DNA of 32,000 bases from Pyrodictium delaneyi. GTDB taxonomy: Archaea; Thermoproteota; Thermoprotei_A; Sulfolobales; Pyrodictiaceae. The notes beneath the pieces are model-generated. The model did no database searches. It worked only from the letters and a program-made list of their open reading frames with translations, and was not told the origin of the DNA. Below, piece after piece: positions 9,148-31,436 of this stretch; the stretch's first letter is position 1, and each line of letters starts with the position of its first letter. Made by a program: the position numbers and the translations under genes. Where the stretch lies: the NCBI RefSeq assembly GCF_001412615.1, contig NZ_CP013011.1:690001-722000 (forward strand). The letters are read 5' to 3'.

Positions 9148-9154
9148 TAGGAGT

Positions 9155-11567: not shown

Positions 11568-11611
11568 CATGAAAGCGACATACCATCGCGGCCCCCGGGC
11601 GGCCTCCCGCG

Positions 11612-16395: not shown

Positions 16396-16899
16396 ATGCC
16401 ACTCCTAGGCCTAAGGAGGAGAAAGGAGGAGCCTCAGGCTACAGACGACGACATAGCCATAGAGCTTACCGAGGAGCAACTAAAGAGAGCAGAGCCGCTG
16501 CCTCACTTTGCCGACGACTCGTGGGGGCCTGGCGACTACATAACGGGCTGGGTCACACTAAATGCCGAGATATGGAAACCCAGGAGAAATCCTGCTGCGG
16601 TTGAGGGGCGCCCGCTTAAAAAGCCTATAGAGATTAACGGGTACCCCTACGGGGCGGCTATCTTCATGGATGATGGAAGAATATTCCTTGTGGATATAAT
16701 CACGTTCAATATAATGGCTGAGGCTGACGGCTCTCGGCCATTGAATGATATAATTGCGAAGCTCGTTGCCGAGATAGCGGAAGAGGACGAGTGGGTAAGG
16801 GAAAAGCTAGAGAAAAACGATAAGGAGTTCCTTACAGGCTTCTACTCCATGCTCTATCGCTCCACTGCTATGTTGAAGGAACGTGGCCTCCTCTACTAG
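16396..16899 (+). CDS. PqqD/RRE-like domain protein, copy 2 (intact)
   Basis: 167 aa. IFLVDIITFNIMAEADGSRPLNDIIAKLVAEIAEEDEW...MLKERGLLY matches the PqqD-family layout, including the terminal ..RGLL. Confidence 0.75.
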   Translation: MPLLGLRRRKEEPQATDDDIAIELTEEQLKRAEPLPHFADDSWGPGDYITGWVTLNAEIWKPRRNPAAVEGRPLKKPIEINGYPYGAAIFMDDGRIFLVDIITFNIMAEADGSRPLNDIIAKLVAEIAEEDEWVREKLEKNDKEFLTGFYSMLYRSTAMLKERGLLY

Positions 16900-19081
16900 C
16901 CCACATTTTCCTGCCGAGCCTTGTACTAGTAAGGTGCCTTGATAGCGCCTTCATCCTCTCCCTAGCACTTCTTGCAAGCTCTACACTCTTCGACTTAACG
17001 AACCTGCCAGTTCTTATCCCAACCTCAGCTGTTATTTCTCCCGCTTTTTCGCCTATGCGTGCTGCCCTGTAGGCTCGTGTCTCTATATCGTATTTGTCTA
17101 GGACGCGTGGCTTGAAGCGCTCTGGGATGCGTATGCCCAGCTCTTTTTCGGCGATGCCTATGAACTCTCTCGCGAAGCCCCTCGCCCTGTTCTCTAGGAG
17201 CGAGGCCGCCTTGACGCCTATCTCGGCGGCCTTTGCGGCTACCGCCGCGGCCCTGGGGTGTCTTAGCCTGTGCTCCTCTATGGCCGGTCTGGCCTCCTCG
17301 ACGGTTTCTGCTGCTCTTGCTGGGGCTGGTGTTATGGGCTTCGGTTGCAGCCATTTCTTTCTCAGCTGGAGTGCCATGCCCTGTGTCGTTGCTAGCTGTC
17401 TTGCCGCCTCGGTGTGCCTGTAGGCTGCCGCTGCTGGTGCTGCTGCGGCGCCGGCGGCGGGGAGTGTTGTGGCTGCTACCGGGGCTGCCGCTATGGCTCC
17501 TGTGGCTGCTCCTGCTGCCGCCCCGGCGGCTGCCGCGGGGGCGGCTCTGGCTGCGCGGATTGCCCTGAGTGCTCCGAGGCCGGGGAGCCCGCCTAGGCCT
17601 AGCTGGTTGAGTATGATGTGGCCTCCGAGGGTTATGGCTATGGGGAGCGCGTAGGCCACGGCTATGTTGACTATCTCGCGGCCCGCGTAGAGTAGGCCCT
17701 GGCTGGCTAGGAAGAGCATGCCGGCGGCCACGAGGCCGAGGACTGCTATCTTCTCTAGCAGGAGGGCGGCGCTCCGGGCCATGCCGCGTAGCGGCGGGAA
17801 GAGCCACGCGGCCGCCCAGACGGGGGCGAGGCCTATTATCGCGCCTGCTGCGAGCCACTTGAGAACGCCTATCACCACCACGGCTATTATCGCTATGAGC
17901 GCTGTCCACGCGACGGCGGCGGCGCCGGCGTTCCAGCCCAGCGCGACCCCGAGCAGCACGTGGCCCAGCAGGAAGCTGTACGCCACGTTAGCCTGGCTGA
18001 TGTTGGCTATGCTCAGCGCAAGCGCGTTGTATAGCTTCGCCAGCGGCGCGTAGAGGGCCAGCCCCGCCACGGCGACTATCAGGCTGAGCACCATGTCGCT
18101 AGCGTACTCGTAGAGGTCCAGCCCCTTGGGGTCCCGCCAGACCCTCCAGAGCGCCCCGGCTATCGCGGCTAGGGGCCAGAGGAGGGGCATCCACACCGAG
18201 GCCCTGGCCCAGAGCTGCTCCATGCCCGGCATGTCGGGCGTTGGGAGCGCTAGCAGCCAGTAGAAGGCCTCCCCGGGGCTGAACCCCGACACCTCCATGA
18301 CCTTCGCGGTCGCCTCTACCGCGCCGCCGAACACGGGCCCCATGACCTTCAGCAGCCTAGCCAGCACCTCCTTGATGCTGTTAGCGATGAAGCCGCCGGC
18401 GTCCTGCCTCTCCAGCGCGTCGCCCGCCTCGATGAAGAGGTTCGCCACACGGTAGCCCAGCTTCTCCACCGTCAGCGTCATCGAGGCGAGGAGCCTGGCT
18501 CCCGCCGGGATGCTCCCACAGTCCCCAGTCCACGCGTACATCTCCACATTGAAGCTCCTCTCCATAGCCGTGCCGAGCGCGTAGTTGTGCACGAGCTTCA
18601 GGCTCCCGCCGGGCGCCAGCGTAGCCGTGCTCTCGCTTCCGTCACCCCACCGGACCCCGACGCATACACTGGTATTGGTCAGCCATGTGTGGACAAACCA
18701 AGCCTCGACAGGGAACTCCTCAGCTACCCTGCTAGGAGGTGGCACAGCAACCACGAGGCTCGCCGTGGCGGCCTGTACCTTCAGGTCCTTGGTGAGCCAC
18801 TTCAGCGTCGCCGGCCCAGCCGCGGCTATGAACAGTGCCACGAGGCCTGCTACTAAGAGCCTCTTCGCCTCCTCCGGGTTATTGGCCATGAACTTGATGG
18901 CAGCGGCCACGAAGAGGAACACCGAGGTCCACATACCCGCGGCGGCGACCCAGCCGTAGGCGTCTCCCACTGCTCCCAGCCCCTGGGTGCTCCACCCTCT
19001 AGCCCCGGCCCGGGAGACGCCCGGGGAAGCAGCGGCCACCCAGCACGCGATGCACACAGCTACACTGCCGCCGTGAATCAC
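16868..19081 (-). CDS. VirB6/TrbL/CedA-like polytopic membrane protein with poly-Ala linker and basic C-terminal domain
   Basis: 737 aa with GTG start. From the N-terminus: a two-helix hydrophobic hairpin, a soluble beta-rich segment, at least 6 further TM helices, an (A/G/P)-rich tract (nt about 17400-17600) and a charged tail. The family call rests on topology and context only. Confidence 0.75.
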   Translation of the reverse strand: MIHGGSVAVCIACWVAAASPGVSRAGARGWSTQGLGAVGDAYGWVAAAGMWTSVFLFVAAAIKFMANNPEEAKRLLVAGLVALFIAAAGPATLKWLTKDLKVQAATASLVVAVPPPSRVAEEFPVEAWFVHTWLTNTSVCVGVRWGDGSESTATLAPGGSLKLVHNYALGTAMERSFNVEMYAWTGDCGSIPAGARLLASMTLTVEKLGYRVANLFIEAGDALERQDAGGFIANSIKEVLARLLKVMGPVFGGAVEATAKVMEVSGFSPGEAFYWLLALPTPDMPGMEQLWARASVWMPLLWPLAAIAGALWRVWRDPKGLDLYEYASDMVLSLIVAVAGLALYAPLAKLYNALALSIANISQANVAYSFLLGHVLLGVALGWNAGAAAVAWTALIAIIAVVVIGVLKWLAAGAIIGLAPVWAAAWLFPPLRGMARSAALLLEKIAVLGLVAAGMLFLASQGLLYAGREIVNIAVAYALPIAITLGGHIILNQLGLGGLPGLGALRAIRAARAAPAAAAGAAAGAATGAIAAAPVAATTLPAAGAAAAPAAAAYRHTEAARQLATTQGMALQLRKKWLQPKPITPAPARAAETVEEARPAIEEHRLRHPRAAAVAAKAAEIGVKAASLLENRARGFAREFIGIAEKELGIRIPERFKPRVLDKYDIETRAYRAARIGEKAGEITAEVGIRTGRFVKSKSVELARSARERMKALSRHLTSTRLGRKMWASRGGHVPST

Positions 19082-19100
19082 TCAAGCCTATCAGTGATTC
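19075..19100. promoter_or_regulatory. perfect 8-bp inverted repeat over the start of the VirB6-like gene
   Basis: GAATCACT (19075-19082) - N10 - AGTGATTC (19093-19100). The GTG start of the minus-strand gene is at 19079-19081. Confidence 0.55.
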
Positions 19101-19172
19101 ATTGAGGTAATGTAGAGTCTATGGCTCCCGGCCCGATACTGTAGAGATAGAACGCGTGTCCACTGTATACAC

Positions 19173-19547
19173 ATGACTACCATTGATAACCCCGATGGAG
19201 AGATTATCAATGGCTGTAATGTCTACGCGGCAGTCACGCACGGGTGGAGCACGGCGATGGAAGCCCTGCATACATATATTACATGTATTCTGGGCCCATA
19301 CTACACCAGGGGGCTACAGGCTATGAGCCGCGCAGAGGCGACGAAGAGCACAGTGGGGGACACGGTGCCCATGGAGGTTCTGGAGCGGGTGGCTGGGGAG
19401 CTGCGGCGCTTCGGGGTGAGGGTCTACGTTATGCCCGACCCCCGGGGCGTACCGGACCTCTATATCCGGGAGGAGGATAACGCGCTCCTCGACAGGCTGT
19501 GCGACGAGAAGAAGCTGAGCAAGGCCGCCGAGGAGCTGCTTTGCTAG
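19173..19547 (+). CDS. hypothetical protein (124 aa; may start at ATG 19323, giving 74 aa)
   Basis: The C-terminal half MSRAEATKSTVGDTVPMEVLERVAGELRRFGVRVYVMPDP... looks coding. The N-terminal part is AT-richer and contains a 10-bp inverted repeat. Confidence 0.5.
   Translation: MTTIDNPDGEIINGCNVYAAVTHGWSTAMEALHTYITCILGPYYTRGLQAMSRAEATKSTVGDTVPMEVLERVAGELRRFGVRVYVMPDPRGVPDLYIREEDNALLDRLCDEKKLSKAAEELLC
19180..19213. repeat. perfect 10-bp inverted repeat
   Basis: CCATTGATAA (19180-19189) - N14 - TTATCAATGG (19204-19213). Confidence 0.6.
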
Positions 19548-19810
19548 CAGCCAAGCTCCTCGTACACGTTCTCCCGGTAGCCCACAGCCTCCACGACCAC
19601 CATGCACTTCTCGGGGAGCACCCTGTAGGCGAGCCTTATCCTCCCCACGCGTAGCTTCCACAGCCCGCGGCAGCGGCCGTGCAGCGGCTCCCCCGCATAA
19701 GGGTCGGCTGCGACGACCTACTTGGCTCTCTCATAGTACTCCATGGCCTCGGGGTGGCGGCGCAGCCACCGACGAGCACGACGCGGCCCGGACAACCTCC
19801 CACTCCACAC
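19544..19810 (-). pseudogene. RelE/ParE-family toxin gene interrupted by an in-frame TAG
   Basis: From the GTG the N-terminal part reads WSGRLSGPRRARRWLRRHPEAMEYYERAK. TAG lies at 19718-19720. The same frame then continues VVVAADPYAGEPLHGRCRGLWKLRVGRIRLAYRVLPEKCMVVVEAVGYRENVYEELGC, a classic RelE C-terminus. Confidence 0.6.
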
Positions 19811-20013
19811 ACTTCTCGGGCACGGATTGACCCCCATGCACCTACGCTGGACCCATTCAATCGTAAAAACGTTGTGCAGCCAGACTGCCTCTAGAAATGC
19901 ATACATTGCCTCATGGCTCTACATCGCTGAATATTGTTCAGGCATGTGGGCTCGGTACCACACTCTAGCTCAAGGAGTAGTATATGCGTGTACTATGTGT
20001 TATACTTTGCGTG

Positions 20014-20031
20014 AAACGTGTTAAACGTGTT
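20014..20031. repeat. tandem 9-bp direct repeat AAACGTGTT x2
   Basis: Read directly from the sequence. It lies in the AT-rich spacer upstream of the relE-like pseudogene. Confidence 0.6.
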
Positions 20032-20046
20032 AGGCGTGGACGCCGG

Positions 20047-21507
20047 CTATACCCGTACCCACTTGCGGCCCGTCATTGTGCCCAGCCCCGCCAGCGCCAC
20101 TAGCAGCACTAGTGCCGGCGCCAGCCACCGGCCCTGCCTCGCGGGCTCTACGTGGAGCCTTACCTCGATGCTGTTGCCTGCTTGGTCTACAGCTATGACG
20201 GTGTAGTTTCCTGGGGGCAGCGAGGCGGCGTCGAGCCTGTAGACCCTGCCCCGGGGCTCTAGCTCCCTGTAGACCCCGCCGCCCCTCTCTATGACTATCC
20301 TCGCCAGGCTACCGCACTCCCCGGGATCCTCGAAGACCAGTGTGTCGCCGCTCCGGCTCCACGTCGGCGCACGGTGGTCCTCTACCCGCTCTACCACCGT
20401 GGGCTCCTCCGCCGGCTCCCAGTGGATTATGCGGCACTCATCGTCCCGGACCAGGAGCCAACCGTACGGGTATACTATACTAACATTGTACTCTAGCCTC
20501 TCCCTGTAGGCCTTCCCGCTGGTAGCATCATCCACCGTGGCCTCGATTATTACTCGTAGCTCGATACTCCTCGAGGGCGGCGTGGGAGGCGCCAGGAGGA
20601 ATGGTAGCTCCAGTGCCGGCTTGTCGAGGCTAGGCGGCCAGGTGTAGTTGTCCGCGCTCCACGCTGTGAGCAGCTGCCAGCCCCTCCACACCTCGACGCG
20701 GGGCATGTAGACCAGGAGCTGGCCCATGAGGGGCTCCAGGAGCTCCTCGCCATGCTCCTCCAGGCCTGTGGCTATGTTCCATACTCTCAGGGTGCAGTTG
20801 CCCGGGAGCCCCGGGCTAGGCCACTCGCAGTAGACGTCCACGGGCAGGTAGGTCTTGTTGAGCACACGGGGGATGATGGTCACGGTCGCGGCGTCCGCAA
20901 GCGTGATGGTGGTCGTCTTGGTCCTTGTCTTGGTGAGCGTCTCATAGCCGGCGCACTTTTTCTTAGTAGTAGTCGTCGTGGTGTTGACTACCGTAGTGGT
21001 TGTTGTGTTGCCTATCGTGGTGGTCACCGTGGTCGTGGTCGTTATCGTCTTTGTCTCCGTCTTGGTCCTGGTGCAGATGCTCGTGGTGTAGCGCTGCCAC
21101 GCAATGTAGCTGCACCTGCAGCCGTAGCCCAGGACGTGCCCTCTCAGGCTCGCCGCCTCGCCGGCGTGCCACACAGCGCTGCACGCCACGCCCTCGCTCT
21201 CATTAAGCGTGATAGCTGCGGGGCAGTTGCTGCCGAGCAGCTCTAGGTCGCCGCGGAGGCTGCAGGTGCACGTCAGCAAGGCCGGGGGGCTGGGGCCCCA
21301 GCGGGGGCTCCACGGTGGCGGACTAGTGTCAGCCAAGGTGTTCGAGACGTGGTAGTAGGCGGTGGCGTTCATGCAGCGGTACATGCTGTCCTCGAGCCAC
21401 GGGTCGAGGGCCGTACCGGCATCGCCCGGCCGGGCGTGGACCACCGCAGCGAGGAAGGCTACCACGAGGGCAGCGCCGGCGTAGAGGGCTAGCCTCGAGG
21501 AGTCCAT
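20047..21507 (-). CDS. secreted, C-terminally membrane-anchored Cys- and Thr-rich glycoprotein (putative surface adhesin)
   Basis: 486 aa. It has an N-terminal signal peptide (LALYAGAALVVAFLAAVVHA), many N-x-S/T sequons, the Thr tract TKTETKTITTTTTVTTTIGNTTTTTVVNTTTTTT and the C-terminal TM WLAPALVLLVALAGLG + RKWVRV. Its start lies 1 nt after the VirB4-like stop. Confidence 0.85.
   Translation of the reverse strand: MDSSRLALYAGAALVVAFLAAVVHARPGDAGTALDPWLEDSMYRCMNATAYYHVSNTLADTSPPPWSPRWGPSPPALLTCTCSLRGDLELLGSNCPAAITLNESEGVACSAVWHAGEAASLRGHVLGYGCRCSYIAWQRYTTSICTRTKTETKTITTTTTVTTTIGNTTTTTVVNTTTTTTKKKCAGYETLTKTRTKTTTITLADAATVTIIPRVLNKTYLPVDVYCEWPSPGLPGNCTLRVWNIATGLEEHGEELLEPLMGQLLVYMPRVEVWRGWQLLTAWSADNYTWPPSLDKPALELPFLLAPPTPPSRSIELRVIIEATVDDATSGKAYRERLEYNVSIVYPYGWLLVRDDECRIIHWEPAEEPTVVERVEDHRAPTWSRSGDTLVFEDPGECGSLARIVIERGGGVYRELEPRGRVYRLDAASLPPGNYTVIAVDQAGNSIEVRLHVEPARQGRWLAPALVLLVALAGLGTMTGRKWVRV
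20897..21072 (-). repeat. low-complexity Thr-codon (ACN) tract inside the glycoprotein gene
   Basis: The plus strand reads as runs of GGT/GTG/GTC/GTT, encoding a mucin-like Thr/Lys linker. Confidence 0.7.
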
Positions 21508-21508
21508 C

Positions 21509-23410
21509 CTAGACCTCTACCTCCTCGAGGCCTGCTGGCTCGGGGGCGGTGTGCGCTGGTTTCTCGCTGAACGGTGTTGTAGAGAAGGCTTCGAGCTCGT
21601 CCTTGCTTATCATTACCTCTACTCTTAGCCTGTAGCCGCCGGCGCGGAGGAGCGCGTAGCCTCTTGGAGCGTCTAGGAGGAAGCTCTGCTCGTTCTCGCT
21701 CAGCGGTATAACCTTGACAAGCTCGTCGAGGGCTGCCGCGTCGAGCCCTAGCAGTATCTGCACCTGGGCCTGCGTCACCACAGTCTTCCCATGGGGGTTC
21801 TCGAGGACGTCCCCGGGCTTCTGGCTGATGAACACGAAGTGTATCCCGCGCTTCCTGCCACGCCTAGCAATGTCAGCCATAAGCGACGCCAGGCTCTCGT
21901 ACTGCATGAAGAGCCATCCCTCGTCCACCACTAGGATGCTCCGCCTGCCTAGAAGCGCCGAGAGAAGCGACGAAACCAGGCTCGCCACCAGGGCCTTTGT
22001 ATCCTTGTCCTGTATCCCGCTTAGGTCGAATACCGCGCCGTGCCGCAGCCCCCGGGGCGGCTCGCCCTCGTATATCCACGCGTCGGCGCCAACCACGTTC
22101 TCCATGTAGTTCTTCAGCTTCTGCGAGGCCTTGTCGTACACCTCGAAGATGCTAGTAGAGGAGCGCACTAGCCTGGTAAGCTCGCCCTCCAGCTCCCGGG
22201 GTATACCGTAGACGTCACGGAGAATCGCTACAGCCTGCTTGGTGGTGATTAGCTCGCTCTGGGCGAGCCGGACCGGGTCCAGCCCCGCGCCCTTCCCATG
22301 TAGCCTGACTACAGCGGCGCCGGGTGCTAGGCGGTCTACGATCCTCGCATACTCCCCCTCGGGGTCCACTATGTAGGGCGGGTACGGGTAGCGCTCCCTT
22401 AGCCGAGAGAGGTAGACCTTGGTGAGCATGCTCTTGCCTTTGCCGCTCTGCCCTATAATGACCCAGTTGTAGTTATCGTAGGCGAACGGGTTCACAATAA
22501 CCGGCGTGCCAGTGTCAACGTTCCTACCTAGTAAGACACCGTCCGGATGAACTAGCTCCTCGCTAACAAAGGGGTAGAAAGCTGCCAAGCTGAACGTGTC
22601 CGTCACGAAGCGTGGCACGAGCCAGTGCCTCGACAACAGCGTGAATGACCTGCGTAGCTCGTAGAGGGGTGCTTGTAGGCTCCCGGGGGCGTAGAGCTCT
22701 ATCCTCCTAGAGGCCGCCAGGCTCTCAAGGTCATAGCATTTCTCGACTAGCTCGTGTTCACTCCTGGCACGGACAACTAGTATCGCAGAGAACCGGAAGA
22801 GGGCCGCAGCCTCAGCCTGCAGCTGCTCTAATGCCCGTAGCTTTGCTATCCTCCTCTGCAGCTCGGCGTTCGAGGGATCATTCGCAAGGAGTGCCTCGAG
22901 CCGCCTTATGAGGCCTGGCAGCTTCTTGCTGGCCTCCCGAGGCTCAATACGGTTAAAGAACAAGTGGACCTCTGACGCAATACCGTAGAACTCTCCTACC
23001 ACGGCTTCAGGCAGGAACGCTGGCAGCCCTGTTACCACGTAGCTCCTCGCCAGCGAACCGTCCTCGAGGATAACAGCAGGCATAGAGACAGTACGGGTCT
23101 TCGCTTTCCCCTCCTCATCCTCGCTATAGACTGGTACCTCTCCACGCGCTATAGTCCGCCCCCTAGGCCTCGGCCTCGGTGGAGGCTCAGCGGGCTCTGC
23201 CTGGAACCCGAAGCTAGAGGGGTCTACGGGGCTCTTCGCGAAGAGGCTGAACCGGTAGAACCTGAAGCCCCACGCCTCCTCCTCTAGGAGGAAGAACGAT
23301 ACAAGGAGCCACGGGCTGGCGTTTAGCAGGGACATCCACCGGGCTAGGAGCTTAGCTCTCTCCCGCTCGCCTAGGGCGGCGAATGGCTCGGGTATGATAT
23401 GGTACCACAA
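21509..23410 (-). CDS. VirB4/TrbE/CedB-like type IV secretion ATPase
   Basis: 633 aa. Walker A GQSGKGKS (22430-22453), Walker B ILVVDEGW (21914-21937), then HFVFISQKP. Size and motif spacing resemble the TrbE homologues of crenarchaeal conjugative plasmids. Confidence 0.92.
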   Translation of the reverse strand: MWYHIIPEPFAALGERERAKLLARWMSLLNASPWLLVSFFLLEEEAWGFRFYRFSLFAKSPVDPSSFGFQAEPAEPPPRPRPRGRTIARGEVPVYSEDEEGKAKTRTVSMPAVILEDGSLARSYVVTGLPAFLPEAVVGEFYGIASEVHLFFNRIEPREASKKLPGLIRRLEALLANDPSNAELQRRIAKLRALEQLQAEAAALFRFSAILVVRARSEHELVEKCYDLESLAASRRIELYAPGSLQAPLYELRRSFTLLSRHWLVPRFVTDTFSLAAFYPFVSEELVHPDGVLLGRNVDTGTPVIVNPFAYDNYNWVIIGQSGKGKSMLTKVYLSRLRERYPYPPYIVDPEGEYARIVDRLAPGAAVVRLHGKGAGLDPVRLAQSELITTKQAVAILRDVYGIPRELEGELTRLVRSSTSIFEVYDKASQKLKNYMENVVGADAWIYEGEPPRGLRHGAVFDLSGIQDKDTKALVASLVSSLLSALLGRRSILVVDEGWLFMQYESLASLMADIARRGRKRGIHFVFISQKPGDVLENPHGKTVVTQAQVQILLGLDAAALDELVKVIPLSENEQSFLLDAPRGYALLRAGGYRLRVEVMISKDELEAFSTTPFSEKPAHTAPEPAGLEEVEV

Positions 23411-23444
23411 CCGGCCTCCCCGCCCTCTAGCCGGGGCGGGGAGA

Positions 23445-24080
23445 CTAGCGCTCCACGAGGACGCGATACCTCGCTAGGAGGGCCGGGGGCTCGGCGCTAT
23501 ACACCTCTACCGTGTGCTCGCCGGGCTCCTCGAACTCCACCCTCGAGGACCACTGCCCGGCGACCCGGAGCCTGCGCACCTCGACACCGTCTACAACTAT
23601 GCGGAGCACAGTCTCCCGCTCAGCAGAGCCGCTAAGAGTCATAGCCGCGTAGCCGGTCTCGCGCATCCTAAGCGTGACACGCTTCTCGACCACCCGGGGC
23701 TCCTCCCGCTCCTCTGCCCCGGCTTGCTCCTCCCCGCTCCGCCCCCTCCTCTTCCTGCCAGCCTTCTGCGTCTTCTGGCCCAGGAGTGTGTAGAGCAGCA
23801 CCGCCTCTGGACGCACAGGCCTGTCTACGAGAAAGAAGTACACGAAGGGGAGGAGGGGTAGGAGCCCCAGGAGCTTGAAGACTCCGGCCTCGAGCTCGAG
23901 GCCGGGCAGATAGACCCTAGGCTCCGAGGGCATCTTGAGTGCGTCCACGAGGGCCAGGGCTATGATTACAGCTAGGTAGGCTAGGCGGCGGAGGGTGAGA
24001 GCAAAGGAGCCGAAGTAGACGAGAGGCTCGTCAAGAAAACCCCGCTCGGGCTCGGCTACCACGTCGACCACTATTCTCAC
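23445..24080 (-). CDS. membrane protein in VirB3 position, with C-terminal beta-rich domain
   Basis: The GTG at 24078-24080 overlaps the upstream TGA (GTGA). Two TM segments: LAYLAVIIALALV and FKLLGLLPLLPFVYFFLV. The longest ORF extends to 24224 but overlaps the upstream gene by 148 nt. Confidence 0.7.
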   Translation of the reverse strand: MRIVVDVVAEPERGFLDEPLVYFGSFALTLRRLAYLAVIIALALVDALKMPSEPRVYLPGLELEAGVFKLLGLLPLLPFVYFFLVDRPVRPEAVLLYTLLGQKTQKAGRKRRGRSGEEQAGAEEREEPRVVEKRVTLRMRETGYAAMTLSGSAERETVLRIVVDGVEVRRLRVAGQWSSRVEFEEPGEHTVEVYSAEPPALLARYRVLVER

Positions 24081-24406
24081 CCGAAGAGGAAGTAGGCTAT
24101 CGTCAGCGCGAAAGTTATTATGAAGCCGCCTATCAGCACGTTCCGCAGCTTCTGCGGAGCCTCCTTGTCGCCCTGGTAGAACTGTATCCCCGTCCATATC
24201 AGCCCGCCGAGGAACAGCATCCATGCTATGAAAATGATGAATCCTAGGAAGCGGCTGAAGAAGCCCTTGACCTCCGGCGGAGCATCCGGCGTTATGTTCA
24301 GCTCTGGCGGCTTAACCACTGTAGCTGTCTCCGCGTAGGCCACCAAAGGGAACTGCCCCACGAGCAGCACGAGAGCGGCTACCGCGCATAGCTCCACACG
24401 CCTCAC
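24077..24406 (-). CDS. VirB2/TrbC/CedA1-like conjugative pilin candidate
   Basis: 109 aa with GTG start. A Sec-type signal peptide ends AYA/ETA. The mature protein has two hydrophobic helices, FLGFIIFIAWMLFLGGLIWTGI and VLIGGFIITFALTIAYFLF, joined by the short polar loop QFYQGDKEAPQKLRN. Confidence 0.65.
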   Translation of the reverse strand: MRRVELCAVAALVLLVGQFPLVAYAETATVVKPPELNITPDAPPEVKGFFSRFLGFIIFIAWMLFLGGLIWTGIQFYQGDKEAPQKLRNVLIGGFIITFALTIAYFLFG

Positions 24407-24450
24407 GGCTATGCACCTCCACGGCGTGGATTGGAGATGAAAAAGGAGGG

Positions 24451-24864
24451 CTAGACCTGGAATGAGAATTCATCCTCCTTGGTCTTTCCGCCTTCCTCGT
24501 AGACCACCTTTATGACGTGCTTGCCGCCGGGCAGCAGCTCGTCGAGGTCTATGGTTTTCTTGTGCTCGTCGCCGGGGCCGAGGCTCTTCGGGAGCCCTAG
24601 GTCGCTCGTTATGTTCCTCGTGCCGTCGATGTAGACCTGTAGGACCTTTATCGCCGAGCCACCGCTGTTACGCAGCGCTATGACCAGGTGTGTCTCGTCG
24701 TCCAGCGTTATCGGCTTAACCGTTACATCAAGGCTGCCGTGCGTCATCGAGGATACTTGGCCCTGAGCCCAGCTATAGATGCCGTAGGCCGCTACGATGC
24801 TGACAATCGTCAGGGCTATCGCGGCTACCACGTAGCTTACCCCGCGCAGCTTCGAGCGCCCCAT
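24451..24864 (-). CDS. archaeal type IV pilin (class III signal peptide)
   Basis: The ATG at 24864 gives MGRSKLRG/VSYVVAAIALTIVSIVAAYGIY followed by a beta-rich domain. The 46-codon upstream extension of the longest ORF looks non-coding. Confidence 0.8.
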   Translation of the reverse strand: MGRSKLRGVSYVVAAIALTIVSIVAAYGIYSWAQGQVSSMTHGSLDVTVKPITLDDETHLVIALRNSGGSAIKVLQVYIDGTRNITSDLGLPKSLGPGDEHKKTIDLDELLPGGKHVIKVVYEEGGKTKEDEFSFQV

Positions 24865-25058
24865 AGCCCCACCCCGTTCTCTCCGCCCTACAAGCTGGCA
24901 AGGGAGACTGCCATGACGTGGAGGCTCTGCTAGCCGGGGCGAGACCGGGAGAAAGAGCAGCCACGGGGCCATGGCTGAGGAGAGTAATGCATGGAGAGGC
25001 ATGGAGGGGCGTAGATGCGTGGGGGTTAAAGGGGGCCGTGTAGAAGAATCAAGTCGTT

Positions 25059-25080
25059 CATCGGTCTCCGATGTGTTTCT
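25059..25080 (-). terminator. possible terminator after the regulator gene
   Basis: On the minus strand a hairpin CATCGG-AGA-CCGATG is followed by the T-rich run TTGATTCTTCT. It lies in the 230-nt gap before the pilin gene. Confidence 0.3.
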
Positions 25081-25095
25081 CCCGTAACACCCGCT

Positions 25096-25905
25096 TCATG
25101 GAGTGTCTCCCAGGAGCCGCCACCGGCCCTCCGCCACCCGCGCTACGTAGCCCATGTCTGCTAGCTTCCCTAGCAGCTTGCCAGCAGAGTTCGGCGTCAG
25201 AGCCATTAGCTCTGCGAAGTCGTCTGTAGAGAACTCTCTATCCCCGAAGACTCTCCTCATGCTGCTGAGGAGCGCGTGCACGTTTATCTTGACCCGTGCG
25301 GATATGTAGTGCTCGCCCACGCTCCCAGCCCTCCACTCGTTAGAGCGTGCCGGGAGAAGGAGAGCAGCCACCTCGCCACGCCACGTGTCGCCGACGTAGC
25401 ACGTCTCTATGCCGCGGCAGAGCGGCGTATAGCCATCGAGGGCCACGACTATGGAGGCGTACGCCTTGACCCTGCCAGCGTGGACGCCCAACAGCTTGTA
25501 GGCGTAGCCGCCGCGTAGGAGCTCGCGGTGGGGTATGCCTAGCCTCTCCGCCACAAGCCTTACGGCTCGGTAGAAGCTAGCCCTCGAGGACCCTGCTAGG
25601 CTCCAAGCCTCCTCAGGCTTCATCCTCTCCCGCCGCTGCCGGGCAGCCTCGACAGTATCTATCCAGAATATCGTGGCTGCCGCTAGCGCCCTGGGGTCGC
25701 GGCCGCGGCCTGGGCCCACCAGCTGGGCTAGGAGCCTGGCGAGACGGGCAGCTTCGAGCGCGTTGTATCCCTGGCTCCTGGCTAGCCTGTCGACGTGCTG
25801 AAGGTACTCGAGAGCCCCGGGCATCTCCGGTATCGGTGGTGGAGGAAGACGTCGCACTAGCACCTCCAAGACACTTCTCCCGAGGGCCATCTCCGAACAG
25901 GTCAT
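25096..25905 (-). CDS. putative transcription factor: TFB-cyclin-like segment + C-terminal winged helix
   Basis: 269 aa. GRGRDPRALAAATIFWIDTV...SRASFYRAVRLVAERLGI resembles a TFB/TFIIB cyclin repeat. C-terminus FSTDDFAELMALTPNSAGKLLGKLADMGYVARVAEGRW is wHTH-like. This is a tentative call. Confidence 0.6.
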   Translation of the reverse strand: MTCSEMALGRSVLEVLVRRLPPPPIPEMPGALEYLQHVDRLARSQGYNALEAARLARLLAQLVGPGRGRDPRALAAATIFWIDTVEAARQRRERMKPEEAWSLAGSSRASFYRAVRLVAERLGIPHRELLRGGYAYKLLGVHAGRVKAYASIVVALDGYTPLCRGIETCYVGDTWRGEVAALLLPARSNEWRAGSVGEHYISARVKINVHALLSSMRRVFGDREFSTDDFAELMALTPNSAGKLLGKLADMGYVARVAEGRWRLLGDTP

Positions 25906-25967
25906 ACCCGTTTAGCGTTGCCCGCTTGCAATTCTTGAGGATTTGTATGGAGGGGGTGGAAGAGGGG

Positions 25968-28010
25968 CTAGCGGGGGAGGGGCAGCGGGGCCATAGCAGC
26001 CAGTGCTGCAAGCAGCACGGCCAACAGCGCGTAGAGGGTGTTGCGCAGTGTCTGGTCGCTGGCCTTGGCCGCGAGCAGCCCCATAGCTAGCCCCGCTAGC
26101 CCGGCGAGGGCTAGGCTCCACTGGTAGGCTACGTCGAAGGCCGCGAGGACCTCCCGGGGCAGCGCCATGGGGCCCTTGGAGAGCACAGCCGTCTCCAGGT
26201 AGCGGCGGGCTATCGGCGCCAGGAAGCGCAGAGAGGCCACGGCGCCAGCGGGCGTCAGCACCGCCATGAGCTGCAGCATCCTCAGCCTCTCGCGGGCCTC
26301 CCTCCATGCCTGCAAGTGCATCTCTACGAGCCTTACAAGCCTCTCCAAGGCCTCCGGCGACGCGGCGCCATACCTTGACATGAGGTGTAGCGTCGAGAGC
26401 ACGTAGCGGAGGAGCCACGACTGGGCCTCGACGCGGCCACGGGCTGCTGAGCGCAGCCTGAGCGCCAGCACACCGCCCACGTGCTCGGCAGCCAGCTCCA
26501 GCGCCCTAGGGACCGGGTGCCCCATCTTCACGTACTCTACCACAATCCTCAGAGCGTCTGCCAGCCTAGCCTCCTCGGCCCTCTTCACGTTGTACTGTGT
26601 GAGCCACATGGCGCCGTAGGCGCCGGCGGCGAGCGCTAGGCTCGCAAACACCACGCCAGCGCCGGGCTCGAGGAAGCCTAGGAATGCCATGAGTGGCGGG
26701 ATGCTCGCAGCTATGGCTGCCGCAGCCACGCCAGCGGCGTCCCGGTACTTCTCGCGGAGCCGAGGCTGCACTGCGTTCAGCATGAGGTAGAATGCTGTGG
26801 CTAGCAGCGGGAGGCCAGCAGTCATCGCGGAGAGCATCGCCACTACAGCGTGCATGTTCAAGACCAAGGCGAAGGCGGCGAACAAACCGACGCCGAGGAA
26901 CACGACAACGAGCGCCATAACGGCGTTTGCGCGCTCCGCGTACTCCACCAGCCTGACGCGCAGAGCCTCCATCGCCCTCCAGACAGCGTCGCCGAGGTAG
27001 GCTGCCACGTCCCCACCACTGCTCTTCACAGCGTCCACGAACCTGTAGAAGTCCCTCAACACCTTGCTAGGCTGCATGGCAGCTACGAGGCCTAGTCCGC
27101 GGCGGGCATAGACCCCGTCGAGCCATGTGCCGGGAAAGAGCTCCCTGTGGCGCGCCGCCTCTATCAGCGCAGCCTCGGGCTCGGCGCCCCCGCCCGAGAC
27201 CATGAGCCACATCCAGAACGCCACGTAGGGGTGCTCCTCCTCCGCGAGCCTGGCTCTCTCGGCTAGCTTCGCCCTGGCGTAGGACTTTATCCCGAGAACC
27301 GTTAGCAGCGGCAGAGGGGCTGCGGCTACGAGTATCCACGGCGAGAAGAGCAGCGCCAGGGGTACCAGTGCCAGGACAGCCACAGCGGCCAGCAGTATAC
27401 TACTAGATACCAGGTATACTGCCTCACGCCGGGTGAAGCCAGCGCCGGATAGCCTTAGGTCCTCGCTGACACGCAGCTTCTGGTCGAGCCGCTCAGCCAG
27501 CCTATCCATGGCCGGAAAGGTGCTCCGGGCAACCACGTACCACGGCGGCCGTCTCTTACCTACCCTCACTACGGGGTGGTAGAGAGACCGGCCTAAGAGC
27601 CATACACCGGCGGCGAGGGCCCCGGCGCCCGGCAGCAGGCCGCTCTCGACAGGCAGCATGCCCAGCGCTGTGGAGGCTATGAGCACCGTGGCCTCGGCTA
27701 TGACTAGCACGGCAGCGATGAATGTGTAGGGGTTGCTGAGACGTATCCTCCAGAGCCTGTAGGGCGCGTGGCGGCGGCGCTCCTCCATGACAGTTATGAG
27801 TCTCCATAGTGCCTCGCTGAGGAGCCGCCCGGTCAGCCTGACGTAAAGCCATAGTGCTATAGCCAGCCCAGCCAGCAGCGAGAGAGCCACAACAGCGAGA
27901 AGGATGCCGCGCGTGGGGACCTGTGGGCGGAGGGCGAGCCAGAGGGCGAACCCTAGGGCTGTGAGGCTCACGACGGCGTACGCCAGCTCCTCGGCTCGGC
28001 CCCGCTTCAC
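25968..28010 (-). CDS. polytopic pilus-assembly platform protein (TadC/FlaJ/UpsF-like)
   Basis: The GTG at 28008-28010 overlaps the ATPase TGA. It encodes 680 aa with many TM helices and cytoplasmic helical segments, immediately downstream of the secretion ATPase. The family call rests on position and topology. Confidence 0.8.
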   Translation of the reverse strand: MKRGRAEELAYAVVSLTALGFALWLALRPQVPTRGILLAVVALSLLAGLAIALWLYVRLTGRLLSEALWRLITVMEERRRHAPYRLWRIRLSNPYTFIAAVLVIAEATVLIASTALGMLPVESGLLPGAGALAAGVWLLGRSLYHPVVRVGKRRPPWYVVARSTFPAMDRLAERLDQKLRVSEDLRLSGAGFTRREAVYLVSSSILLAAVAVLALVPLALLFSPWILVAAAPLPLLTVLGIKSYARAKLAERARLAEEEHPYVAFWMWLMVSGGGAEPEAALIEAARHRELFPGTWLDGVYARRGLGLVAAMQPSKVLRDFYRFVDAVKSSGGDVAAYLGDAVWRAMEALRVRLVEYAERANAVMALVVVFLGVGLFAAFALVLNMHAVVAMLSAMTAGLPLLATAFYLMLNAVQPRLREKYRDAAGVAAAAIAASIPPLMAFLGFLEPGAGVVFASLALAAGAYGAMWLTQYNVKRAEEARLADALRIVVEYVKMGHPVPRALELAAEHVGGVLALRLRSAARGRVEAQSWLLRYVLSTLHLMSRYGAASPEALERLVRLVEMHLQAWREARERLRMLQLMAVLTPAGAVASLRFLAPIARRYLETAVLSKGPMALPREVLAAFDVAYQWSLALAGLAGLAMGLLAAKASDQTLRNTLYALLAVLLAALAAMAPLPLPR

Positions 28011-29242
28011 CCAGCCTCCCCGCTCTCCTGGCCGGACGGGGAGACGCAGCGCCGCGGCTCGCCGCGCTCCTCCCACGTATCGGTGTCGCTGCTCCACTCC
28101 CATAGCAGCCTGAACTCTCCCTCCCAGCGCTCCCAGAGCCCGAGCATCCTCCGGGCCCTGCCTCCCTCGGGCAGCTCGACGATGCCGAGCAGTGCCACGG
28201 CGTGGAGGTTGTCTAGCAGCTCCTTGGGGACTCCTAGCAGCGTGAGCCTGGTTGTTAGCTCCTCGATGTTGCGGGCGTGGAATGTGGCGGCGCTGGCGAC
28301 CCCTAGGGAGGCGGCGTGGAAGAGGTACACTACCTCGCGGAACCGTGCCTCCGCGACCGCGACCACATGCGGCCGGAGCCGGAGGGCGTGCTTCAGCAGG
28401 TGCTCCATGGTCACGGTTATCCTCTCGGGCTCGGCTAGGCTCCTTGGCTCCCTTGTGTGGAAGCTGCTCCAGTTACGCCTCCGGAGCCGGACCTCCGGGG
28501 TCTCCTCGACAACCACCACCTTCCAGTCGGGGTCCGGCAGGCTGTCGAGCAGCGCGGCCATGAGCGTGGTCTTCCCCGCGCCCGGCGGCCCTATCACGAA
28601 CACCATGCCGCCGCCGAGGAGTAGGCAGCGCAGGTACTCGGCGGCCTCCCTGGGGAGGAGCCGGAGCTCCACGAGCCGGTCGAGGCTGTAGGGCTGGCTG
28701 GGGAACAGCCTGACAGTCAGGCTAGGCCCCGTGGAGGCCACCAGCCCCAGGGCCGCGGCTACCCGGGCCCGCCCGTAGTCGAACTCCGCGATGGGGTAGG
28801 CCGGGTTGATGCTGGTCCCCGCGCGTACGCTAAGCTCCCGTATAACGTCCTCCAGCGCCTCCCTCTCCAGGACCACGCTGGACTCCAGGTAGACGCCGGG
28901 CACCTCCCTGTGGACCACGTACACGGGCCCAGGCCGCGGCACCGACACCTCCTCGAGGCCCTCGTCCAGCACCATGGGGTAGAGGGGGCCCCAGCCGCTC
29001 ATGAGGCGCCGGACATGGTACTCTATCGCCGTGGCCTCGCGCTGGTAGACCTCCGCGTAGCCCAAGTGATCGGCGGCCGTCGCGATATTGTCGCTCTCGG
29101 GCTCCAGGCCCCGGAGCGATAGCCACTCCTCGATGGCCTTGACGGCCTCAGCAGCCTCTGGTGACAGCGCCGGCTCCTCGACGACGTAGCTCCGGGTCCT
29201 TGGGTCCACCATGTACCTGACAGGCCCTATCGTGTACTCCAC
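28007..29242 (-). CDS. type II/IV secretion-family ATPase (PilB/FlaI/VirB11/UpsE-like)
   Basis: 411 aa. Walker A GPPGAGKTT (28565-28591). Other motifs: VVVVEETPE, RLRPHVVAVAE, ATFHA. Confidence 0.92.
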   Translation of the reverse strand: MEYTIGPVRYMVDPRTRSYVVEEPALSPEAAEAVKAIEEWLSLRGLEPESDNIATAADHLGYAEVYQREATAIEYHVRRLMSGWGPLYPMVLDEGLEEVSVPRPGPVYVVHREVPGVYLESSVVLEREALEDVIRELSVRAGTSINPAYPIAEFDYGRARVAAALGLVASTGPSLTVRLFPSQPYSLDRLVELRLLPREAAEYLRCLLLGGGMVFVIGPPGAGKTTLMAALLDSLPDPDWKVVVVEETPEVRLRRRNWSSFHTREPRSLAEPERITVTMEHLLKHALRLRPHVVAVAEARFREVVYLFHAASLGVASAATFHARNIEELTTRLTLLGVPKELLDNLHAVALLGIVELPEGGRARRMLGLWERWEGEFRLLWEWSSDTDTWEERGEPRRCVSPSGQESGEAG

Positions 29243-29246
29243 GCTC

Positions 29247-29579
29247 TCACCCGCATACGGGCGGGGATACGACGTAGTACTGGCCGGGCGGGATAGTGCC
29301 GTTAAAGACGGGGACCGTCTCGTTCCAACCGTCGTTATCTATATCCGCAAAGACCCAGACCTTCAGCCCCATCTCCCGCAGCTCATCCACGTCTATGCTG
29401 GTGAAGGCGTAGCAGACGGCATGGGTGCTGTTGACGCGTATGCTCTGGAACGCGTCCACATCACCGGTATGCTGGAGCAGCTCAACCCTCGGGGCAAGAT
29501 AGCTGACCAGGAGAGCACCGAAGACGGAGGCTATGACGGCGAGGGCCACCGCGCCCACTATCTCCGAGACCCCGCGCAC
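29247..29579 (-). CDS. small pilin-like protein with class III signal peptide
   Basis: The GTG at 29579 gives (M)RG/VSEIVGAVALAVIASVFGALLV. An alternative GTG lies at 29591. The gene ends 4 nt before the ATPase start. Confidence 0.65.
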   Translation of the reverse strand: MRGVSEIVGAVALAVIASVFGALLVSYLAPRVELLQHTGDVDAFQSIRVNSTHAVCYAFTSIDVDELREMGLKVWVFADIDNDGWNETVPVFNGTIPPGQYYVVSPPVCG

Positions 29580-29609
29580 TCCTCCGGGCACCCCGCTAGG
29601 AGAGCAGGC

Positions 29610-29633
29610 GCCGGGAGACGCGCGTCTCCCGGC
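29610..29633. promoter_or_regulatory. perfect 24-bp palindrome in the divergent intergenic region
   Basis: GCCGGGAGACGC|GCGTCTCCCGGC, located between the minus-strand pilin-like start (29579) and the plus-strand start (29655/29664). Confidence 0.7.
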
Positions 29634-29654
29634 CCGCCCCTCTAGGACGGAGGG

Positions 29655-30944
29655 GTGGGAGAGGTGCGCGGACAGGGCACGGTCGTTGCAGCCGCGATAG
29701 TCCTCCCCATCCTCATAGCAGCCACGGCGGCCGCTATACTGAAGTGGCAGCAGATGGCGAGCGTCGAGGAGCTGGTGCAGACCAGCAGGAGCCGCGTCGC
29801 CCACGCAGCGGAGATGCTCAACGACACAGCGCTACATGCTAGGGATAGTGCCCTCGTGCTCGTGCAGACCAGCGACGGCCAGCTCTTGCTGAGGCAAGTG
29901 GACCCGGGCGAGACGCTAGCCCTGCCACAAGGTAGCCGGGGCTGGATCCTCGTGGGGCCCGCAGCCCAGCCCCTACAATCACTCATAAACGCCACGAGGG
30001 TCTACGAGGCGCTGGGCGAGATTGACAGCACAGTAGAGCAGCTCAACAACACCCTAAGCCAGCTCAGCTCCACTATATCTGCGGTAGAGCTGATAGCTAA
30101 TGGCTACCTGGATCCACTCTTCGTGGAGTATAGCGACGTGCTGGATCCGAACGCGTACCGTGGCTACGTGTACGTGGGCGGGTACACACTGGGGCCTCCC
30201 ATGGTGCAGCTTAGGAGCCCATATGTCTGCATAGACTATGGTAGAAGGACTGTAGAGATGAACCTGATGACAATAAGTCTGCCCGATGGGGGTAGCATCA
30301 GCGTCGTCGGCACGAAGAGTAGCGAGGGCAGCGACAGGGTTTACGTGGAGTGGTGGGTGACTTGGCCTAACGGGACCAGCGTCCTCGTAGCAAACATTAC
30401 GGGCAGTGCGTGGCGTAGCTTCAGCTTCACCGTCGGGAGCTACACGGTCACTGTCAGCGGCTACTTCTCCTGGACGAGATATACGTGGTGCGGAGAGTAC
30501 ACGTATATCCCGTGGCTCTACAGGGTCACAATCCGGATCATTGGCGAGAGAAGCGCTACACTATATATATCCACGACGGACGTGGAATGGCCCGTTGACT
30601 GGTTCAGGTGGACCGGGAGCTACAGATACGACACAATAAACGAGCTCGCTGCGAACCAGGTACTCCTAGTAGACCTCCAGACGCTCTACTGCCGCCAAGT
30701 ACAGAACTATGGCGCGAGCTGCGTCCTCGTGAGCAGCCAGCTCGATAAGCCCGTACTAACGCCGGGTAGCGCCAGCAGCATAGTGTATAGTGTCTCGTCA
30801 GAGGCGACAACAAGCTGGACGACATGCAGGTGCATAACCGTGACCAACCCCGGGCCATCGAGATACATAACGGTAAACTTCGACGGCGTGTGGATAACAC
30901 TACCACCAAGGACATTCACAGGCTCGCTCTTCGAGAACCCCTAG
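29655..30944 (+). CDS. large extracellular protein with pilin-type N-terminus (putative minor pilin/tip adhesin)
   Basis: 429 aa. The GTG at 29655, or the GTG at 29664 giving (M)RGQGTVVAAAIVLPILIAATAAAIL. The remainder is aromatic- and beta-rich with N-x-S/T sequons. Confidence 0.8.
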   Translation: MGEVRGQGTVVAAAIVLPILIAATAAAILKWQQMASVEELVQTSRSRVAHAAEMLNDTALHARDSALVLVQTSDGQLLLRQVDPGETLALPQGSRGWILVGPAAQPLQSLINATRVYEALGEIDSTVEQLNNTLSQLSSTISAVELIANGYLDPLFVEYSDVLDPNAYRGYVYVGGYTLGPPMVQLRSPYVCIDYGRRTVEMNLMTISLPDGGSISVVGTKSSEGSDRVYVEWWVTWPNGTSVLVANITGSAWRSFSFTVGSYTVTVSGYFSWTRYTWCGEYTYIPWLYRVTIRIIGERSATLYISTTDVEWPVDWFRWTGSYRYDTINELAANQVLLVDLQTLYCRQVQNYGASCVLVSSQLDKPVLTPGSASSIVYSVSSEATTSWTTCRCITVTNPGPSRYITVNFDGVWITLPPRTFTGSLFENP

Positions 30945-30996
30945 CCTGCCAGCCTTTTCTTTGAACAGCCCCGTGTCCCCTACCCTCCGGTTTACG

Positions 30997-31107: not shown

Positions 31108-31130
31108 TTTCTTAGACGGAGGGATGGGCT

Positions 31131-31436
31131 GTGGGCGACTGGGTCCTCTGCCGGATATTCTTCTACGGCGAGAAAACCGTGGAGATATGCAACCAGTTGC
31201 TCGACGAGCTCGTAGAACGGGGCTACATACACATAGCCCGGAGCGACCCAGAGAAGAGCATCAAGTACCACGTAGCCAAGAGGCTACGAGAACTAGGCAT
31301 ACTAATGCACCGGACCATAGAGAACTGCCGCCTCGACCGCATACACCGCATCTACGTAGCCGACCGCAAGAGGATGGCAAAGCTACGCCTCGAATTCGAC
31401 CAGCTCGACCGCCCATGGCCCATATGCATAGACTAG
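31131..31436 (+). CDS. small winged-helix protein
   Basis: 101 aa with GTG start. VEICNQLLDELVERGYIHIARSDPEKSIKYHV is wHTH-like. Preferred over the overlapping frame 31124-31510, which is Arg/Pro/His-rich. Confidence 0.6.
   Translation: MGDWVLCRIFFYGEKTVEICNQLLDELVERGYIHIARSDPEKSIKYHVAKRLRELGILMHRTIENCRLDRIHRIYVADRKRMAKLRLEFDQLDRPWPICID

Follow-up and report, generated by a model that had tools for sequence, protein, structure and literature searches.

Are a type IV pilus and a VirB-like DNA-transfer system, encoded side by side on an archaeal chromosome, two halves of one mating apparatus carried by a mobile element? The question is raised by a 32,000-nucleotide stretch of chromosomal DNA from the hyperthermophilic crenarchaeon Pyrodictium delaneyi Su06; we refer to this whole stretch, which has a G+C content of 62%, as the window. 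Conjugation in archaea is poorly understood and its substrate is debated; we know of no relaxase in archaeal conjugation, and of structural data only for the domesticated Ced and Ted pili. We propose, with a probability of about 0.7, that the window is part of an integrative and conjugative element (ICE) and that its mating apparatus consists of two gene sets inherited jointly. Every gene listed in a preliminary description of this DNA was recovered by open reading frame (ORF) listing and family scans, at its given position or a few codons away. The interpretation offered there stands in part: the gene anatomy and its linkage are borne out, what the sets do is a matter of deduction, and the novelty was overstated.

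Linkage of the pilus and VirB-like sets

The gene order ATPase, platform protein, putative regulator, pilin B, VirB2-like protein, a protein of ~206 aa, VirB4 and a protein of ~485 aa is shared by the window, the orthologous locus of P. delaneyi Hulk (L085) and another genome assembly, in which the ATPase is 67% identical (L086), and is found in part on a short contig (L084). In the window, the genes are packed closely, as in operons: the intergenic distances from pilin A through the 486-aa gene are, in order, 4, -4, 62, 231, 44, 5-11, 34 and 1 nt. In L086, a VirD4-like gene and an integrase gene lie just upstream of the pilus genes and the VirB operon lies beyond them, so that the pilus set stands between conjugation genes. 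A 7-kb metagenome contig (L087; 50% G+C, ATPase 41% identical) keeps the composite rearranged as two divergent operons, with the regulator, ATPase and platform genes on one strand and, on the other, genes for a homologue of pilin B, for another pilin-like protein and for a VirB2-like protein (E value 1.5e-7; values in this form below are also E values), together with the start of the ~206-aa gene. It also encodes a 366-aa protein with a class III signal.

The two sets were linked in all related loci long enough to judge, and all major genes of the window are full length relative to their homologues. Given that the composite recurs in strain Hulk, in L086 and in the rearranged L087, the sets form one linked unit rather than two chance insertions, and a linkage that outlasts both rearrangement and divergence argues for function. 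The preliminary description had staked its interpretation on pilus and VirB-like genes occurring together elsewhere, and across the relatives they do.

Beyond the close relatives, the Archaeoglobi metagenome-assembled genome (MAG) WYZ-LMO2 (L002, 3900-8945) carries in a row the genes for VirB4, a TFIIB zinc-ribbon protein, a Pilin_N archaeal pilin and a T2SSE ATPase. Its VirB4 is the closest non-Pyrodictium VirB4 among the matches listed (30% identity), and the VirB4-pilus linkage is therefore also present on a euryarchaeal contig. Next to this row are genes for cytochrome bd oxidase. In a Thermoproteota MAG (L003), VirB4 and a weakly matching T2SSE ATPase are 3 kb apart, and the next-closest relative of the pilus ATPase (L088) lies 4 kb from a TraG/VirD4-like gene. 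Scans of metagenomes and viral contigs with the platform alignment found no relatives.

Table 1. Main features of the window, with positions counted from its first nucleotide; a slash in a signal sequence marks the predicted cleavage site and TM stands for transmembrane
Feature	Coordinates	Strand	Basis or remark
VirD4/TraG-like coupling-type ATPase, 1216 aa	4265..7915	+	TrwB_AAD_bind and TraG-D_C above cut-offs
VirB6/CedA-like channel protein, 700 aa	16868..18970	-	Deposited start; hhalign to TrbL_3/VirB6
Surface protein, 486 aa	20047..21507	-	N-terminal signal/TM, Thr-rich linker, C-terminal TM anchor, 9 N-glycosylation sequons
VirB4-family ATPase, 633 aa	21509..23410	-	Pfam AAA_10 and P-loop_TraG above cut-offs
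Two-TM membrane protein, ~208 aa, C-terminal beta domain	23445..24071	-	Occupies bacterial VirB3 position
VirB2/TrbC-like pilin, 109 aa	24077..24406	-	Signal peptide ending AYA (signal-peptidase-I type), two TM helices
Small pilin B, 137 aa, Pyrde_0728	24451..24864	-	Class III signal MGRSKLRG/VSYVVAAIAL; heads VirB2-VirB4 operon
Putative regulator, C-terminal winged helix-turn-helix	25096..25905	-	Weak HTH matches and conserved position
Platform protein, UpsF/TadC/FlaJ type, polytopic, 680 aa	25968..28010	-	NCBIfam UpsF/BasF; start is GTG at 28010
Pilus assembly ATPase, FlaI/GspE2 type, 411 aa, Pyrde_0731	28007..29242	-	Pfam T2SSE, NCBIfam and PDB matches
Small pilin A, 110 aa	29247..29579	-	Class III signal MRG/VSEIVGAVALAVIASVFGALLV; L085/L086 homologues 110 and 109 aa
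Secreted protein, 429 aa	29655..30944	+	Class III-type signal MGEVRG/QGTVVAAAIVLPILIAATAAAIL; divergent from pilin A gene
Small protein, 101 aa, adjoins integrase	31131..31436	+	100% identical to L085:7803-8108
Tyrosine integrase, N-terminal part	31619..32000	+	Gene continues past window end; identity to L085 integrase N-terminus

Assignment of the components

A T2SSE/FlaI/GspE2-type ATPase, an adjacent platform protein and pilins with class III signals, the parts by which a type IV pilus set is recognised, are all present (Table 1). The ATPase, placed in the PilB/FlaI family by the preliminary description, matches Pfam T2SSE well above the cut-off (85.6 bits, 3.4e-24; cut-off 24.9), contains the motif GPPGAGKTT and is 100% identical to Pyrde_0731. 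Its NCBIfam matches are FlaI (1.7e-42) and the conjugal-transfer-associated TadA (1e-35). Because its Protein Data Bank (PDB) matches to FlaI (1e-32) and to Archaeoglobus fulgidus GspE (3e-32) far surpass those to CpaF (3e-18) and VirB11 (only 4e-12), it is assigned to the pilus type and not to the VirB11 type. The platform gene overlaps the ATPase stop codon by 4 nt. Its product, with about 9-10 hydrophobic segments, matches the NCBIfam models UpsF (2.4e-28 over residues 342-700) and BasF, the bindosome platform (1.2e-16), in both cases far below the equivalog cut-offs; the Pfam T2SSF match of 14.6 bits is under the cut-off of 25.2, and this family is sub-threshold in 3 of 4 family members. 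PDB searches with the platform and regulator profiles gave nothing useful.

A predicted class III cleavage signal, consisting of a short charged leader, a [KR][GA] site and ~20 hydrophobic residues, occurs in three proteins: the two small pilins already described as carriers, which the motif confirms, and the 429-aa protein, which is added here. Pilin A begins with MRG/VSEIVGAVALAV and matches NCBIfam UpsA weakly (8.5e-4), as does pilin B (1.3e-5), which is 100% identical to Pyrde_0728. A single-sequence AlphaFold2 model of pilin B consists of an N-terminal helix and a beta sandwich, with a predicted local distance difference test score (pLDDT) of 72, and its full-length Foldseek matches were only archaeal type IV pilins, Sulfolobus acidocaldarius Aap 8q30 (8e-4) and Haloferax volcanii 8fj5 (5e-3); a homologue search with pilin B returned only pilin B itself. 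The 429-aa protein contains five N-x-S/T sequons and had no match in family scans. It is conserved in L085 (98% identity) and L086 (27%), with the 366-aa protein of L087 as a counterpart bearing a like signal, and it may be a large minor pilin or adhesin that forms part of the pilus set. The divergent region between its gene and that of pilin A contains a perfect 18-bp palindrome, GGGAGACGCGCGTCTCCC (29613-29630), which is unique within the window and is a possible operator; it is also present in L085, where the region is ~95% identical anyway. No prepilin peptidase candidate (PibD/FlaK) was found among the window ORFs scanned. The archaeal prepilin peptidase gene is usually located elsewhere in the host genome.

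The protein encoded between the two operons has weak Fe_dep_repress, MarR_2 and ArsR matches over residues ~200-260 and keeps its position in L084-L087. Its identification as TFIIB, prompted by the zinc-ribbon gene of L002 and by reported TFIIB genes beside archaeal T4SSs, was dropped, as profile comparison gave no support.

On the transfer side, the window encodes VirB4, VirB6/TrbL-like, VirB2/TrbC-like and VirD4/TraG proteins, core parts of a minimal conjugative T4SS of the monoderm/archaeal kind. Judged by sequence, the VirB4 assignment is unambiguous: the protein, described beforehand as VirB4/TrbE-like, carries the motifs GQSGKGKS and ILVVDEGW, matches the PDB entries 4ag5 (VirB4; 5e-57) and TrwK (6e-14), and has NCBIfam matches to CD1110 (6e-30), Mbov_0397 (9e-26), VirB4_CagE (1e-15) and CedB (4e-13); an exact-sequence look-up with it found no entry. 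The VirB2-like protein matches Pfam T4SS_pilin at 3e-3 (17.9 bits; cut-off 26.6), its homologues weakly match TrbC, and hhalign gave 93.6% (2e-7) against a T4SS_pilin family built from bacterial VirB4 loci. Its profile found no PDB chain at E values up to 10, and the PDB should include TedC and CedA1.

Between VirB2 and VirB4, the preliminary description had placed a membrane protein of 259 aa in the VirB3 position. Such a protein exists, but it is ~208 aa long and has two hydrophobic segments; L084-L086 encode homologues of 204-206 aa, and L087 preserves an N-terminal fragment of one. Its candidacy as VirB3 found no support, as hhalign gave 17% against a family of small proteins preceding bacterial VirB4, and the likeness is positional only. 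The 486-aa surface protein is conserved behind VirB4 in L085, L086 and L082, and had no match in Pfam and NCBIfam scans.

For the VirB6-like protein, the earlier family assignment stands, and the length of 737 aa gives way to 700 aa, the deposited gene, whose product matches the window protein at 100%, beginning at residue 38 of the 16868-19081 reading frame. The protein is laid out as a VirB2-like helical hairpin, an extracellular PKD domain (WGDG motif; match 5e-6), a polytopic channel bundle, an Ala-rich linker and a charged helical tail. A profile of the protein and its relatives aligned by hhalign over 240 columns, at 98.2% (3.9e-13), with a TrbL_3/VirB6 profile built from genes adjoining bacterial VirB4, and all controls (an unrelated polytopic family, a reversed profile and block-shuffled profiles) stayed below 9%. 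Direct searches with Pfam and other HMM families gave no match, and a TrbL_3 profile HMM search of the window proteins was also empty. The N-terminal hairpin aligned with the VirB2-like family at 91.3%, and Beltran et al. noted that the N-terminus of CedA resembles the pilin CedA1. The AlphaFold2 model (pLDDT 67) had weak Foldseek matches to R388 TrwI/VirB6 chains (~0.09). In the papers on these systems that we read, we found no report of a PKD insert in CedA or TedA.

The VirD4-like ATPase matches Pfam TrwB_AAD_bind (1.6e-10, 40.9 bits; cut-off 20.5), TraG-D_C (3.7e-8, 33.8 bits; cut-off 22) and T4SS-DNA_transf (1.7e-5), and the NCBIfam CD1115 VirD4-like model (3.4e-14). It is atypical in that no hydrophobic segment or TM anchor is predicted and in its C-terminal extension of ~550 aa, which has an acidic Gly/Glu/Ala-rich stretch and a coiled coil and gave no family match. 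Residues ~790-850 resemble a PD-(D/E)xK-type nuclease motif by eye only, and no family match backs it. A homologue, 51% identical, adjoins the pilus genes in L086. HMM and profile searches thus left standing the VirB4 assignment and the VirB2- and VirB6-like folds on which the preliminary description had made its case depend.

The mobile element and competing readings

The integrase fragment at the right end of the window is identical in translation to the N-terminus of a 286-aa integrase in L085 (6760-7620), where the gene is intact and weakly matches Phage_integr_3. There, the host genes nrdD and a major facilitator superfamily (MFS) transporter gene lie directly outside the integrase and the pilus genes directly inside, so that a site-specific integrase marks the element boundary; L086 also has an integrase. 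With the integrase gene from 31619, an internal IS200/IS605 insertion sequence (IS), a toxin remnant and, in L085, host genes just past the integrase, the earlier proposal that the pilus/VirB cluster sits within a mobile element is supported. The IS is a TnpA-TnpB pair on the minus strand (TnpB 14226-15566, TnpA 15568-15981). It is flanked by two paralogous genes (13727-14200 and 16396-16899), whose starts share a 34-nt repeat that is 85% identical. The ParE-like toxin remnant (~19545-19745, minus strand), whose C-terminal 57 residues match Pfam ParE-like_toxin at 4e-6, is broken by a TAG stop codon in frame and occupies the 1-kb gap between the 486-aa and VirB6-like genes. Positions 9000-11100, with 44-48% G+C against the 62% background, encode one 599-aa protein with several weak winged-helix matches (MarR_2, TrmB), and this segment looks like a recent foreign insertion within the element.

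Several small HTH and AbrB-type genes are also present in the window. At 11173-12130, an AbrB/MazE-type gene and a small neighbour with weak MerR-type HTH matches have homologues in L086 (49% and 40% identical; 16426-17271) that are inserted in the VirB operon, where they separate the ~204-aa gene from VirB4. No tRNA gene and no Rfam family was found in the window.

Between the two strains, identity is mosaic. In the compared part (17790-32000), DNA identity to L085 is 89-100% over 29100-32000, which covers the integrase, 101-aa, 429-aa and pilin A genes, and 55-75% over the rest, with islands of 82-91% in the regulator gene and where the 486-aa gene begins. The VirB4, pilin B and VirB2 genes are at ~60-67%. 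At the protein level, identity is 98% for the 429-aa protein, 62% for VirB4, and 57% for pilin B and for the VirB2-like protein. To judge by this pattern, the mosaic suggests recombination among related elements.

How might such an element work? The FlaI/GspE2-type ATPase and the UpsF/TadC-type platform would assemble the class III-signal pilins after their processing by a host prepilin peptidase, and the 429-aa protein may act as an adhesin. By analogy with Ups pili and the R64 thin pilus, the resulting filament would make or stabilise donor-recipient contact. The VirD4-like ATPase would feed element DNA into a VirB4-VirB6 channel, while the VirB2-like protein, presumably exported by signal peptidase I, could form a conduit or pilus of the Ced/Ted type. 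Integration and excision would fall to the tyrosine integrase at the right end. This division of labour between contact pilus and DNA conduit is a reasonable inference, drawn from the same analogies. Because pilin B heads the VirB2-VirB4 operon and a winged helix-turn-helix gene lies between the operons, it is plausible to suggest that the pilus and VirB operons are co-regulated and that their products cooperate physically. A clean division of the layout into two modules fails, as a class III pilin gene opens the VirB2-VirB4 operon.

Several points weigh against this reading. What was observed is the homology of the parts, their spacing, their linkage and their element context, and the function of both sets is deduced from these. 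The assignments of the platform, the VirB2-like protein and the pilins come from scores under curated family cut-offs. Related loci number only about five in the collections searched, mostly from one archaeal family. Two metagenome contigs with a VirB4 that is 92% identical (L082/L083) show an apparent loss of the genes from the platform through the ~208-aa gene: a short ORF ahead of VirB4 fuses platform sequence (window 27621-27707) with the last part of the ~208-aa gene (window ~23565), and this implies a deletion of ~4 kb in which pilin B, VirB2, the regulator and most of the platform were lost. The window includes neither the attachment sites nor the left end of the element, so that mobility has to be deduced. 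No prepilin peptidase, relaxase or replication gene was recognised among the window ORFs in family scans; for the relaxase, the ORFs scanned did not include all small ones, and the element extends past the window. Finally, the IS element, the low-GC insertion and the toxin pseudogene point to some decay.

Among the other readings, the one that fares best, although we consider it quite unlikely, is a single hybrid machine in which the class III filament is a structural part of the VirB4/VirB6 channel, a piston or pseudopilus as in bacterial competence, with the ATPase in the role of VirB11. VirB11 is indeed absent, no VirB3 or VirB8 homologue was detected (PMC11868833), and pilin B stands first in the VirB2-VirB4 operon in four loci, including the rearranged L087. 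T2SSE ATPases also adjoin the nearest archaeal VirB4 relatives, among the matches listed, even where no TadC was seen (L002, L003), and L088 has a related ATPase close to VirD4 and no large platform gene called alongside it. The ATPase is, however, far nearer to FlaI/GspE2 than to VirB11, and together with a complete UpsF-like platform and its own pilins it makes up a self-sufficient pilus set, while Ced, Ted and monoderm bacterial systems function without type IV pilus components (PMC9905601).

The pilus genes might instead be cargo, encoding a pilus for adhesion or biofilm formation that is of use to the host, or helps it to stick to surfaces or cells, and has no role in DNA transfer. Adaptive cargo is frequent on ICEs (PMC5797428), the 231-nt gap and the regulator part the pilus ATPase operon from the VirB operon, and the pilus end of the element (29100-32000) differs in history from the rest, as its identity to L085 indicates. 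Cargo is normally variable, yet all related loci have kept the pilus set, even where ATPase identity falls to 41% and the genes are rearranged. Moreover, pilin B is embedded in the VirB operon, and this ATPase lineage is repeatedly found beside conjugation genes (L086, L087, L088), which makes the cargo explanation very unlikely.

It is improbable to the same degree that the locus is a domesticated or immobilised remnant whose apparatus now exchanges or imports chromosomal DNA, as Ced and Ted do, and no longer transfers the element. The intact integrase of L085, and a strain mosaic that suggests exchange among related active elements, speak against immobility, although the element lies beside an identical integrase in both P. 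delaneyi strains, bears a ParE pseudogene along with IS and low-GC insertions, and has a metagenomic deletion variant. Nor does the apparatus look like a domesticated one: the VirD4-like ATPase is not among the listed Ced/Ted components (PMC9905601, PMC11868833), and VirB4 is nearer to the monoderm ICE-type VirB4 than to CedB (6e-30 vs 4e-13). As for the window lacking any recognised relaxase or replication module, proven Sulfolobus conjugative plasmids are also without relaxases (PMC6563490). The idea of two independent insertions is rejected because of the synteny in L085, L086, L084 and L087.

The reading of a jointly inherited mating apparatus can be carried further, to a claim in two parts: that the whole is one co-evolved apparatus, the class III pilin, transcribed together with VirB2 and VirB4, acting directly with the VirB4/VirB6 channel, and that the Ups and Ced systems of Sulfolobales descended from such a composite element and not from two acquisitions. 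Taken together, we regard the two parts as a tentative and unlikely proposal.

Comparison with known systems

The closest parallels are the ICEs of thaumarchaea, two of which were described by Abby et al. 2018 (PMC5797428). Their conserved components, as listed by Krupovic et al. 2019 (PMC6563490), are VirB4, VirD4, VirB6, VirB3, TadC, FlaI/PilT, a prepilin peptidase and pilins, and the same paper reports that these and other archaeal conjugative elements are without relaxases. The thaumarchaeal elements (NCAV2-E1/E2, NitIsl-E3 and others) share with the Pyrodictium element an integrated state, a tyrosine integrase, VirB4 and VirD4, VirB6, a VirB2-like pilin, TadC, FlaI-type ATPases and pilins, and like it they are known only from genome analysis; no relaxase is reported for them, and none was recognised among the window ORFs scanned. 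They belong to another phylum, whereas the host here is a hyperthermophilic marine archaeon, and their genes are reported to be non-syntenic, whereas synteny is tight across the relatives of the Pyrodictium element. The window showed no prepilin peptidase, PilT or ParB, and the likeness is one of described gene content.

With the Ups and Ced systems, the element shares an UpsE/UpsF/UpsA-like pilus set, in which UpsF is the best family of the platform and the pilins are weakly UpsA-like, and a VirB4/VirB6/VirB2-like transfer set, in which the N-terminus of the channel protein resembles a pilin, as in CedA and CedA1. Ups components act with Ced in DNA export and import, and UpsC is required for both (Wu et al. 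2025, PMC11868833). The two systems are encoded at separate chromosomal loci, are induced by ultraviolet light and import chromosomal DNA, whereas the Pyrodictium sets are adjacent on an integrase-bearing element with VirD4. Moreover, the Pyrodictium VirB4 is not a CedB orthologue, as the CedB model gives 49 bits against a cut-off of 700, a weaker match than those of bacterial ICE VirB4 models, and its VirB2-like protein has a cleavable signal, whereas CedA1 is unprocessed. In this last respect it is closer to TedC, which has a signal of the signal-peptidase-I type. The Ted system (TedA/TedB/TedC) of the hyperthermophilic crenarchaeon Pyrobaculum calidifontis also shares the minimal VirB6/VirB4/VirB2 set, but it is described as chromosomal and domesticated, has HerA, Rad50 and ParA genes linked to it, and is not reported to have pilus genes nearby.

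Among bacterial systems, the IncI1 plasmid R64 has a type IVb thin pilus (PilQ/PilR/PilS/PilV) that stabilises mating pairs, with recipient specificity set by shufflon-switched PilV adhesins. Like the Pyrodictium element, R64 is a conjugative element with a complete type IV pilus set besides its DNA-transfer system; it differs in being a bacterial plasmid of a two-membrane cell, and the sequence relationship of its pilus and transfer genes to those here goes no further than the superfamily. The systems of monoderm bacteria and Patescibacteria supply the best family matches of the window VirB4 (CD1110) and VirD4 (CD1115), and bacterial VirB4-neighbour profiles (T4SS_pilin, TrbL_3) match its VirB2-like and VirB6-like proteins. 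Bacterial VirB4 relatives are, however, only 25-30% identical to the window VirB4 among the matches listed, and at L001, the single bacterial locus examined, no pilus genes were called and VirB4 is followed by a gene for a CHAP hydrolase, where the Pyrodictium element has a glycoprotein.

What distinguishes the element is that an Ups-like pilus, a Ced/Ted-like DNA channel and a VirD4-like ATPase are physically linked in one compact, apparently intact gene set in a cultured hyperthermophile, of which a second strain holds a diverged variant. It therefore offers a concrete system for asking whether archaeal mating involves cooperation between contact pili and DNA conduits, and whether the chromosomal Ups and Ced systems arose from mobile elements. 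The preliminary description presented the arrangement as not known to be characterised in archaea, a claim that went too far, as the thaumarchaeal ICEs (PMC6563490) and the coupling of Ups and Ced (PMC11868833) precede it. The kind of arrangement is already known, and the element reveals no new kind of system; new here, set beside those relatives, are the lineage of the host, a synteny that is both tight and conserved, and the placing of a pilin gene within the VirB operon.

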